Source: Deinococcus radiodurans R1 = ATCC 13939 = DSM 20539
GTDB taxonomy: Bacteria > Deinococcota > Deinococci > Deinococcales > Deinococcaceae
Reading direction: 5' to 3'
DNA: 32,000 bases
NCBI RefSeq assembly: GCF_000008565.1
Contig: NC_001263.1
Location: 144,694-176,693 of the forward strand
The notes below the pieces were generated by a model, which searched no databases, was not told the origin of the DNA, and saw nothing but the letters and a program-made list of their open reading frames with translations. Below, in pieces: positions 548-9,095 of the stretch. Each line of letters starts with the position of its first letter. The first letter of the stretch is position 1. The translations under genes and the position numbers were made by a program.

Positions 548-577
548 GCCCCCACTGTGACTGGTGGGGGCTTTTCT
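548..577 (+). terminator. intrinsic terminator after the DUF11 gene
   Basis: Stem CCCCCAC (549-555) / GTGGGGG (564-570), 8-nt loop, then CTTTTCT. Confidence 0.55.
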
Positions 578-596
578 CCGTCGTACCCTGTCCCCC

Positions 597-1352
597 ATGT
601 TCGACTCGCACACCCACCTCGATTATCTCGACGACCCCGCCTCGGCGCGGGGTGAACTGGGCCTGACCGGCATGGTCTGCATCGGCGCCAGCGCGGAACA
701 TGCCCGCAACGCGGTGGCCCTGGCCGAGCAGTTCGGTGACGTGTGGGCCACCGTCGGCCTGCATCCTGGCGACGTGGAAGAGGACTCGCCGGACACCCGC
801 GCCGCCATTGAGGCCCTGCTGGACCATCCCCGCGTGGTCGGCATCGGCGAGAGCGGCCTGGACGACTACTGGAACGACACACAGCGCCCCGCACAGCTCG
901 CCGCCTTCGAGTGGCAGTTGGAGCTCGCGCGGCGCAGTGGCAAACCCCTGGTTATTCATACCCGCGACAAGCCGGGGCAGGACTCGGCGCACCGGGGCGT
1001 CATCGAAACACTGAGGGACTGGCCCGATGTGCAGGTCATCCTCCACTGCTTCACCGGGCACGCGGGGCTGCTGGCGTGTGGCCTGGAACGCGGCGCTTAC
1101 TTCGGTTTCGCGGGCAACGTGACCTACAAAAATGCCGTAGAGATTCAGGCGGCGGCCCAGCAGGTGCCGCTGGACCGGCTGCTGGTCGAGACCGACGCCC
1201 CCTTCCTGGCGCCGGTGCCCAAGCGGGGCAAACCCAACCGGCCCGGCTACGTGCGCTATACGTTGGATTTCGTGGCGGGGCTGCGCGGTCTGAACCCGGC
1301 AGAGCTGGAGCGCGTCACCGACGAAAACGCCCGGCGGGTGTACGGCATCTGA
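597..1352 (+). CDS. tatD: TatD-family metal-dependent hydrolase
   Basis: N-terminus [11 protein letters not shown] (HxH metal motif), plus HCFTG and LVETDAPFL motifs typical of TatD. ATG 597 is preferred over the ORF-track start 564 because a TACCCT box (584-589) lies 7 nt upstream. Confidence 0.88.
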
Positions 1353-1392: not shown

Positions 1393-1469
<77 letters not shown>

Positions 1470-1475
1470 TAAAAA

Positions 1476-1504
1476 GCCCCGCCTAGCGCGGGGTTCTTCT
1501 TTTG
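1476..1504 (+). terminator. intrinsic terminator after tRNA-Arg
   Basis: Stem CCCCGC (1477-1482) / GCGGGG (1488-1493), 5-nt loop, then TTCTTCTTTTG. Confidence 0.75.
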
Positions 1505-1624
1505 CTTTGAACACTGCAAGAGCGTCAATTTTCAAACAAGAATTTAATCCTTTGCTTTGTCTCAATAGTCCGTGCAGTTTTGGAATTCAGCTAACCAAGC
1601 TGCGATAAACACGGCGTTTTTTGT

Positions 1625-1660
1625 CCCTCCCTCCTTGCGGGGGAGGTTGGGATGGGGGAG
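1625..1660. repeat. GC-rich REP-like hairpin element inside the low-GC islet
   Basis: CCCTCCCTCC-TTGC-GGGGGAGG hairpin followed by TTGGGATGGGGG. A related ...GGGGGGATGGGG element is at 25203-25244. Confidence 0.4.
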
Positions 1661-1673
1661 CGCAAATGGCGTC

Positions 1674-2213
1674 CTAGACAGCAAGATCTTGATCGCCCTC
1701 TGTAACGACCACAAAACTGCACGAACCATTGTTGTCTGTAGGAAGGATAAAATCTTCCCAGGCATAACGTTGACCATGATCTTCGAAATTATCTGTGACA
1801 TATCTATGTAGAATTTCAACCAGCAAGGTAGAAAATGAGACGAAACCTACTGGGGTTAGGCGCATGTAGCGAATCTTTTGAAAATTACCCACCGATGTTT
1901 CCAAAATCTCATCAATAGAAAACGTCGTATGGTTATGTTTTGCAATCTCAGTCTGCGCACTATCTGGCAAGCGAGAAAAGAGGTCTTTTGGGTTGTGGGT
2001 GTGCTTGGGTTGAATCCCATGCATCAACAAAATGCCCTTTAAATAAAGTTCGGATGAAAAAGAAGCGAGCACCATAGAGGTGTATGGAAGTTCCCTCACC
2101 CAGGGCCGTGAATATAAAAATAGAGGGATGGGAGCCACTGCCCTTACGTTATTTCTGTCGAAAAGGACATGCTCTCGGTGTCGCATAACCTCGGCAGCGT
2201 ATTGATAGGCCAC
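1674..2213 (-). CDS. hypothetical protein with a HEPN-like signature, in a low-GC islet; 5' end uncertain or possibly frameshifted
   Basis: The frame is open for ~200 codons (2273 down to 1674) in ~40% GC DNA, which is unlikely by chance. SELYLKGILLMHGIQPKHTHNPKDLF resembles the HEPN helix pattern (LKxxLxxxGxxxxxTH(D/N)xxxL). No in-frame ATG lies at the 5' end; candidates are GTG 2213 and ATG 2186. Confidence 0.55.
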   Translation of the reverse strand: MAYQYAAEVMRHREHVLFDRNNVRAVAPIPLFLYSRPWVRELPYTSMVLASFSSELYLKGILLMHGIQPKHTHNPKDLFSRLPDSAQTEIAKHNHTTFSIDEILETSVGNFQKIRYMRLTPVGFVSFSTLLVEILHRYVTDNFEDHGQRYAWEDFILPTDNNGSCSFVVVTEGDQDLAV

Positions 2214-2366
2214 TGCTTGATCAAATACTTGCAGTGCCTTTTCTTGATCAGACGGTTCTGCTTGATTAATATTTCATCACTCCTCTCTGAGCACAGACAT
2301 TTGGGTGGAATTCAGGCGTTATATCTGAGTAAGGGCATCTAAAATACAACGTAGCTCTGGAAATTA

Positions 2367-2411: not shown

Positions 2412-5153
<2,742 letters not shown>

Positions 5154-8756: not shown

Positions 8757-8938
8757 AAAAGCCTCCTTGACTGTGTTGACCCTAGCCCCGCCGCCCCCGG
8801 ACTTTCGTCAGCGCAGCGGCGTTGTGAAGAAAAAACGAACGCCGGAGGTGTTACTGCACCCGTTCAGCCCCCCGGCCCCTGAAGGCACCTTCCTTGCGGC
8901 GCGGGTGCCGTACCCTGAACGCGGTTCTTCAGGAACCG

Positions 8939-9083
8939 ACCTCTTTCGGGGCGGGGCGAAATTCCCCACCGGCGGTAAGTTCTCCCGAACAAGCCCGCGA
9001 AGCCCGCGCAAACCGCACCACGCGCCGGGCCCGATGCCGCGCAACTCGGCAGCCGACGGTCACAGTCCGGACGAAAGAAGGAG
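8939..9083 (+). promoter_or_regulatory. FMN riboswitch (RFN element) upstream of ribD
   Basis: CTCTTTCGGGGCGGGGCGAAATTCCCCACCGGCGGTAAG...AGCCCGCGAAGCC...GGCAGCCGACGGTCACAGTCCGGACGAAAGAAGG matches the RFN consensus blocks. The P1 3' arm runs into the AGGAGG Shine-Dalgarno. Confidence 0.92.
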
Positions 9084-9095
9084 GAGACGCTCAGC

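Follow-up and report, generated by a model that had tools for sequence, protein, structure and literature searches.

A short AT-rich islet beside the tRNA-Arg(CCT) gene of Deinococcus radiodurans R1 carries a single gene, a minus-strand open reading frame (ORF) that public records list as "hypothetical protein". Both lie within a stretch of 32,000 nucleotides of contig NC_001263.1 (positions 144,694 to 176,693), here called the window, whose own numbering is used throughout. The ORF is probably a decaying, solo HEPN-T-like gene, located on an imported islet at a tRNA flank that was recently exchanged between lineages. In this reading the islet would be a short remnant of horizontally acquired DNA 3′ of tRNA-Arg(CCT), on a replicon of the D. 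radiodurans chromosome I type, and its one gene would encode a stand-alone HEPN protein with an Ex3K motif, a histidine in an insert and an arginine at the end of helix 3, lacking both the Rx4-6H motif and an MNT partner. Judging from the superfamily, the intact protein would cleave or bind RNA, in a role in defence or abortive infection like that of the solo protein AbiV. Decay would be reflected in the lack of a canonical start ahead of the conserved first helix, in the replacement of the last four codons by 19 foreign ones through a small noncoding repeat (SNR) resembling a miniature inverted-repeat transposable element (MITE), in clade-unique changes at two family-conserved positions, and in alleles whose only differences are substitutions that alter an amino acid, inserted MITE or insertion sequence (IS) copies and a deletion at the 5′ end.

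A low-GC islet with one open reading frame

The G+C content of positions 1505-2365 is 0.443, with 0.662 and 0.675 on the two sides. Along the interval from the tRNA to valS the values run from 0.40 to 0.49, and in the flanks from 0.62 to 0.71; it is the sole low-GC stretch of the 32-kb window, where G+C elsewhere never falls below ~0.61. The initial annotation, made from the letters of the window, had described a low-GC islet between the terminators of tRNA-Arg and valS with one real-looking minus-strand ORF, and all these sequence facts hold, down to its four G+C counts made by hand, which are exact (0.333, 0.367, 0.433 and 0.733). The stop-free frame extends on the minus strand from 2273 to 1677 (199 codons), and the chance that its 181 native codons would stay open at the base composition of the islet is 3.7e-5. 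The islet leaves space for no second credible ORF and contains no integrase ORF, and an Rfam scan of it gave no match apart from the tRNA. A search on the valS side for an attachment (att)-like repeat of the tRNA 3′ end gave only a 12-nt match (11/12) within the ORF, which was judged to be probably due to chance.

The product belongs to a small family of HEPN-type proteins

The Pfam profile PF05168 matches the protein of the window with an E-value of 5.5e-4 and 20.5 bits (cut-off 22), covering the stretch that had been flagged as HEPN-like at the outset. The same profile is matched at E<=0.1 by 16 of the 16 family members (best 1.7e-7), among which no other family recurs, and a precomputed PF05168 match is available for P0003, P0012 and P0016. 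Scans of the protein or the family against NCBIfam, PADLOC and PHROGs gave no matches, the Pfam HEPN_AbiV and PADLOC AbiV models match 0 of the 16 members, and sequence searches of the PDB, both with the single protein and with a profile, returned nothing meaningful. A word-indexed search of 5.8 billion proteins recovered only the protein's own 90% cluster, and among 1.84 billion representatives searched exhaustively with phmmer there were 14 proteins at E<1e-3, of which the top match outside that cluster has 40% identity (E=3e-25); with just 14 such matches, the family is therefore real but very small. No relatives were found in phage genomes (tblastn), in IMG/VR viral contigs or in PHROGs.

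The structure predicted by AlphaFold2 (AF2) from a shallow alignment is all-helical, with a mean predicted local distance difference test (pLDDT) value of 62.7 and values of 83-94 at residues 70-130. Of the top six structures retrieved from the PDB by Foldseek, five are annotated as HEPN (1ufb, 4nqf twice, 2hsb and 1wol) and the sixth is YutE (1ylm), with 1o3u also among the top HEPN matches; 2hsb (AF_0298) aligns with a probability of 0.99, a TM-score of 0.67 and a root-mean-square deviation of 3.9. Csm6, kanamycin nucleotidyltransferase and HepT toxins appear at lower ranks. The assignment to HEPN made from the letters alone is thus borne out by a profile shared by the whole family and by top structural matches that are HEPN proteins.

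Eight residues do not vary among the 16 aligned sequences (F72, E75, K79, L98, L102, F131, R135 and Y136), and H93 is conserved in nearly all of them. E75 and K79 form the Ex3[KR] motif of helix 2 as defined for the superfamily (PMC3710099), and H93, in a TH(N/D) motif, sits in the loop past helix 63-84. The Rx4-6H site, which had been named as the feature to look for, is absent from the alignment: R135 is invariant and is followed by YMRLTPV, with no histidine, while at R+4/+5 the other members carry E or D (15/15) and the D. radiodurans clade has L139-T140. In AF0298-like HEPN-T proteins and in AbiV the arginine is likewise kept, the histidine of Rx4-6H is absent, with an acidic residue in its place, and the insert that separates helix 2 from helix 3 holds a second histidine (PMC3710099); for these proteins an alternative RNase site has been suggested as possible (Anantharaman et al., 2013; PMC3710099). 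The same arrangement can be recognized here in the arginine that is kept, in the missing motif histidine and in a second histidine, nearer the N-terminus, in that insert; the acidic residue is carried by the other family members, and the D. radiodurans clade lacks it. Sequence and model support the view that the ORF product is a HEPN-type protein of the PF05168 HEPN-T kind and of the AF0298/AbiV type, and it may be a putative RNase.

Among the closest known systems is AF0298-like HEPN-T (PDB 2hsb), which has in common with the protein of the window the fold, the Ex3K of helix 2, the histidine of the helix 2-3 insert and the arginine of Rx4-6H without its histidine, and of which stand-alone versions exist, as here. 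It differs in that the profile score is marginal here (20.5 versus 22 bits), helices 1 and 2 are separated by an extra loop of ~30 residues, a threonine replaces the Asp or Glu of the family in the D. radiodurans clade, and the subfamily, with 14 representatives at E<1e-3, is tiny. AbiV of Lactococcus lactis is likewise a single gene of ~200 aa with no partner and no Rx4-6H, and has its alternative histidine in the same place (PMC3710099), which makes it a plausible model, by analogy, for the working of an intact copy; unlike AbiV, however, no member of the subfamily matches the Pfam HEPN_AbiV or PADLOC models, and none of its relatives was recovered from the phage collections.

One alternative reading makes the gene the toxin of a toxin-antitoxin (TA) pair bereft of its MNT partner. 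Many HEPN proteins do pair with MNT (PMC3710099), PF05168 is the MNT-associated clade, and the type II/VII MNT-HEPN systems (Shewanella SO_3166/SO_3165, HepT-MntA) have the superfamily fold in common with the protein, their structures 7ae8, 6m6w and 7bxo standing lower in the Foldseek list. Nevertheless, an MNT (NTP_transf_2) gene was found beside none of ~20 family loci, among which the neighbours were checked on a plasmid of Deinococcus sp. D7000, an Acinetobacter plasmid, a Firmicute chromosome, a prophage-like region and several metagenome contigs, and proved to be heterogeneous; the Rx4HxY catalytic motif is also absent, and an active orphan toxin would not be kept stably. With no MNT gene next to any relative, an MNT-HEPN toxin that has lost its antitoxin gene is a most improbable explanation. 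The family is stand-alone, in agreement with the earlier remark that the islet has no room for a partner gene.

The abnormal 5′ end of the gene

The sequence at the 5′ end of the frame is as first described: an SD (Shine-Dalgarno)-like GAGGAG at 2285-2280 precedes ATG 2277-2275 and the run AAA 2274-2272. ATG 2277 is off by one base with respect to the long frame, stands 2 nt past GAGGAG and gives MKY followed by a stop. A further ATG, at 2300, is in frame upstream of the long frame and reads MSVLREE, then a tandem TGA TGA (2279-2274), then NINQ.... The non-canonical ATT 2270-2268 is in frame, 9 nt past GAGGAG, and canonical starts appear in this frame no earlier than GTG 2213 (residue 21), followed by ATG 2186. 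A protein of 193 aa from an ENA metagenome contig of 805 bp (P0027) reads the two TGA codons as Trp-Trp (MSVLREEWWNINQ...). Real readthrough of TGA TGA is rejected as an explanation, since the "WW" is most simply the product of a gene call made with a code in which TGA=Trp.

The relatives align from query residues 6-15 on, about 8-15 residues upstream of GTG 2213, and the conserved motif (V/I)(F/I/L)DQAVAY spans GTG 2213 itself; this homology indicates that the coding region reaches upstream of both canonical starts, and the early observation of an abnormal 5′ end is sustained, with no canonical in-frame start where the homology begins. Public records are at variance on this point, the same "hypothetical protein" having been given four different starts, with gene-caller products of 170, 164, 133 and 132 aa; public annotations give 164-179 aa from GTG 2213 and 170 aa from ATG 2186. 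Leaderless mRNAs are common in Deinococcus, and a functional, truncated protein initiated at GTG 2213 or ATG 2186, as publicly annotated, would have in its favour that gene callers chose such starts and that these are the first canonical ones in frame. Starting at GTG 2213 would, however, cost part of the FDQAVAY motif and about half of the first core helix (model residues 7-34), and starting at ATG 2186 nearly all of that helix, while full-length relatives start 10-14 residues ahead of the motif and GTG 2213 is not preceded by an SD. A truncated functional product is for these reasons very unlikely.

As one of two possibilities, the gene had also been described as freshly inactivated, by one A too many in the run after ATG 2277. 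The 5′ sequence GAGGAGTGATGAAATATTAA is, however, also present in the metagenome contig L001 and in Deinococcus sp. PESE-38 (L089), that is, in three of four alleles, the region being deleted in the fourth (L088), so that the lesion is not fresh in the D. radiodurans strain. The one-A frameshift stands as a possible history of the 5′ end, and not as the sole repair, given the spacing to GAGGAG of ATG 2277 (2 nt) and of ATT 2270 (9 nt); a start mutation from ATG to ATT and genuine initiation at ATT are the other possible histories. No minus-strand promoter upstream of the ORF was found in a consensus promoter scan.

A small noncoding repeat inserted in the 3′ end of the coding sequence

The GC-rich hairpin at 1625-1660, regarded at first as a REP-like element located downstream of the gene, turns out to be the centre of a 169-bp SNR/MITE inserted inside the ORF. 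Exactly positions 1563-1731 are missing from three alleles, those of the metagenome contigs L001 and L088 and of the PESE-38 chromosome (L089), and the hexamer TTGTCT, which occurs once in these alleles, occurs twice in the window, on either side of the insert. The native end of the protein, ...ILPTDKAKD in the alleles without the SNR, has thereby become ...ILPTD-NNGSCSFVVVTEGDQDLAV, with the last four codons swapped for 19 foreign ones. Copies of the SNR with the same ends and with their own 7-bp target duplications are present on chromosome II (412 kb; 100% identical) and on MP1 (91%), and the 169-bp element occurs in 15 plasmid or chromosome II records, all from D. radiodurans. In this species 295 copies of SNRs, of at least 9 types, have been described (PMC1978522). 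The element of the window resembles the SNRs/MITEs of D. radiodurans in being short and non-coding, in its 20-nt terminal inverted repeats (TIRs), in the 6-7 bp target duplications and in its presence on several replicons of D. radiodurans only; this copy, however, lies within a coding sequence, to which it donates a new C-terminus and stop codon.

Signs of probable decay in four alleles

The comparison of alleles covers four DNA sequences, the window, L001, L088 and L089. In L001 an IS630-type element of 1067 bp (L001:207-1273), with HTH_32/33 and DDE_3 encoded in two ORFs, is inserted at window position 2340/2341, which precedes ATG 2277 by 63 nt; its inverted ends measure 11 bp (TAGATAACGTG), and it is flanked by a duplicated TA. 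In L088 a 73-bp deletion (L088:205-215; window ~2267-2342) takes out the whole SD and start region and puts an in-frame TTG beside the ORF; its left edge is at most 3 nt from the TA used by the IS630 element of L001, which suggests that the deletion is IS-associated. All seven substitutions inside the ORF among the four alleles are nonsynonymous (neutral expectation 0.78 per change, p=0.17), a pattern compatible either with the absence of purifying selection or with diversifying selection. At two positions the D. radiodurans clade departs from the rest of the family, Pro95 being found in this clade only where the family has Leu, Ile or Val, and Thr140 where 15 of the 15 other members have Glu or Asp.

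The tRNA-Arg(CCT) genes of the two metagenome contigs also differ from that of the window. In L001 (1971-2047) C is changed to G on the 5′ side of the anticodon stem, where a mismatch would result, and A to G in the variable region, and in L088 (835-911) T is changed to A in the D-loop; these differences may be errors of low-coverage metagenomes.

Foreign origin and probable recent exchange of the islet

The relation of the islet to its neighbourhood is best seen by comparison with PESE-38. Over valS the two sequences differ at 129 of 2661 nt (4.85%), 104 of the mismatches being at third codon positions, and over the next 819 nt, which comprise the islet without the SNR and the 3′ part of the tRNA, at a single position (Fisher p=2e-14), so that the divergence of the islet is ~40x below that of the adjoining valS. 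Mismatches in valS (2412-5072) continue up to 17 nt from its stop codon, with the last at 2441 and 2429, and past the stop the only one down to the tRNA is at 1928; owing to this sharp drop at the valS stop codon, the valS terminator may be part of the exchanged segment. The closer strains L001 and L088 show 3-4 differences in the islet, above the count in the more distant PESE-38. Divergence of the islet is thus at odds with that of its flanks, which points to recent horizontal exchange.

That the segment could instead be native, old Deinococcus DNA of unusual composition would agree with its presence at the same junction in every D. radiodurans-type genome seen, but it is contradicted by the ~40-fold lower divergence between lineages, by the lack of an orthologue of the ORF in other Deinococcus (in the searches of 5.8 billion proteins and with phmmer) and by a junction that is not syntenic within the genus; this explanation is hardly credible. 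The junction in other Deinococcus was compared from the valS side only, with D. radiodurans not among the matches listed, and for the three other Deinococcus species among these matches no tRNA was found at a distance of up to 4 kb from valS. In Deinococcus sp. bin12 (L008:6763-8141), whose valS product has 89% amino-acid identity, valS is followed by an unrelated convergent gene, with no tRNA and no tatD. As tRNA and tatD are missing from this flank, synteny within the genus breaks at the 3′ end of valS.

In PESE-38 (L089:3429-6354) only nucleotides 32-77 of tRNA-Arg(CCT), the 3′ 46 nt from the anticodon loop to CCA, adjoin the islet. Beyond this partial tRNA are short repeats of the CCCTAAG type and then an island with PIN_3, HTH_17 and a phage-type integrase, which looks like an integrative element located in the anticodon-loop region of tRNA-Arg(CCT); the tRNA gene is therefore an active integration site in this strain. 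The HEPN islet lies outside the integrase island.

The link with tRNA genes extends to the family. At six independent family loci a tRNA has its 3′ end 64-289 nt away from the gene, namely tRNA-Arg(CCT) in the window, tRNA-Ala(TGC) in L096, tRNA-Lys(CTT) in L103 and in L098, tRNA-Trp(CCA) in L084/L085 and tRNA-Val(TAC) in L087, and such adjacency would be expected by chance, by a rough estimate, at ~2% per locus. Orientation with respect to the tRNA varies, some genes being convergent with it and others co-directional. At the locus of the closest homologue (L096) the gene forms a low-GC patch (0.47 versus 0.63) and what is left of a tyrosine recombinase, its C-terminal part (...LGHSRPSFKADVY...), abuts the start codon. 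Low G+C against a high-GC background is seen for the homologues in L090 and on the D7000 plasmid as well. By analogy with these loci, the family gene may ride at the att-proximal end of tRNA-integrating elements, of which the islet would be a remnant; as the window holds no integrase and no att repeat, an origin from an integrative element rests on the analogy with L096 and on tRNA adjacency. The early suggestion that the tRNA 3′ flank had received foreign DNA is in keeping with the low G+C, with the contrast of 1/819 and 129/2661 mismatches and with the tRNA-adjacent relatives.

As in known tRNA-linked genomic islets, a position at a tRNA 3′ flank is combined here with deviant G+C, patchy distribution and a divergence unlike that of the flanks, and the tRNA-Arg(CCT) itself is an active integration site in PESE-38. 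Compared with such islets, the one described here is only ~0.7 kb long, has one gene and shows neither integrase nor att repeat within the window.

Decay or function

Several observations weigh against an imported HEPN gene in decay. Integrase and att repeat, as said, are missing from the window. The model reaches a mean pLDDT of just 62.7, and its Foldseek matches have weak E-values (0.18-1.3). The 180-codon core is open in all four alleles and every invariant residue is kept, the in-frame ATT 9 nt after GAGGAG could act as a weak start for a full-length product, and the SNR alters the last four residues only, outside the conserved domain. Nonsynonymous changes in seven cases out of seven are also expected under diversifying selection, and with p=0.17 they are weak evidence.

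The rival reading is a working solo HEPN gene of defence or abortive infection, started at ATT 2270, maybe by coupling to the MKY mini-ORF whose stop overlaps the ATT, and tolerant of the SNR tail. In favour of such a gene are the intact core frame with all its invariant residues, a spacing from the SD that is good for the ATT and just 2 nt for ATG 2277, a 5′ arrangement unchanged in three alleles, an SNR that touches only residues past the domain, and the exclusively nonsynonymous changes, as a diversifying defence gene would show. However, ATT starts are rare, P95 and T140 depart uniquely at family-conserved positions, the 5′ deletion of L088 and the IS of L001 63 nt upstream of ATG 2277 suggest dispensability, and the consensus scan gave no promoter-like site on the minus strand. 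Moreover, since the alleles are very similar, an open frame says little on selection and its conservation carries no weight. A working gene is rather unlikely, though less so than the other alternatives to decay. A more ambitious proposal, that the subfamily is a single-gene, AbiV-like defence module with an E/K/H/R site, carried as att-proximal cargo of tRNA-integrating elements and left beside tRNA genes as a solo islet once the remainder of the element is gone, and that the D. radiodurans copy is expressed from the ATT, maybe coupled to the mini-ORF, seems decidedly unlikely.

Decay of an imported, solo HEPN-T-like gene is the reading to be preferred, and the locus is an ordinary mobile-DNA remnant, not a new system. 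The main value of the analysis is for annotation, in that the "hypothetical protein" can be described as a HEPN-T-like gene, probably degenerate, that lies on an imported islet, and the "REP hairpin" can be relabelled as an SNR/MITE insertion with a known empty site. The islet also offers a compact case of AT-rich DNA that, once imported into a naturally transformable genome of high G+C, is eroded differently from strain to strain (a MITE, an IS or a deletion), and of a segment whose passage between lineages outpaces the divergence of its flanks. That members of this HEPN subfamily are repeatedly found just 3′ of tRNA genes gives a modest lead for cataloguing the defence cargo of integrative elements; the locus has no bearing on any long-standing open question.

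Features of the locus

The coordinates of the islet, of its gene and of the neighbouring genes are collected in Table 1.

Table 1. Coordinates (window numbering) of the islet, its gene and the flanking features of the D. radiodurans R1 window.
Feature	Position	Strand	Remarks
Low-GC islet	1500-2365		0.44 G+C; near-identical across lineages with valS 4.85% apart
Native coding region, HEPN-T-like gene (putative)	1732-2273	-	Residues 1-180 of the 199-codon frame
Family motifs	E75 2049-2051; K79 2037-2039; H93 1995-1997; R135-Y136 1866-1871	-	
Abnormal 5′ end	2268-2300	-	Identical in L001 and L089
Small noncoding repeat (MITE-like)	1563-1731		169 bp; within the 3′ end of the ORF
TIRs of the SNR	1563-1582 and 1712-1731		20 nt, 18/20 matches; TIR search 2 hits versus 0 expected
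Target-site duplication TTGTCT	Left 1557-1562, right 1732-1737		Single copy at the empty site, L001
SNR-encoded C-terminus NNGSCSFVVVTEGDQDLAV	1674-1731	-	Stop 1674-1676; first Asn codon 1731-1733 spans the junction
tatD-like gene	564-1352	+	
tRNA-Arg(CCT)	1393-1469	+	ARAGORN; Rfam tRNA 68.4 bits; 3′ side toward the islet
Bidirectional terminator-like hairpin	1475-1495	Both	For the tRNA on +, for the HEPN ORF on - in alleles without the SNR
valS terminator-like hairpin	2391-2373	-	Islet edge on the valS side
valS	2412-5153	-	Housekeeping flank; yardstick of divergence

Elsewhere in the window, an FMN riboswitch (RFN element) is found on the plus strand at 8938-9086 (Rfam, 95.1 bits).

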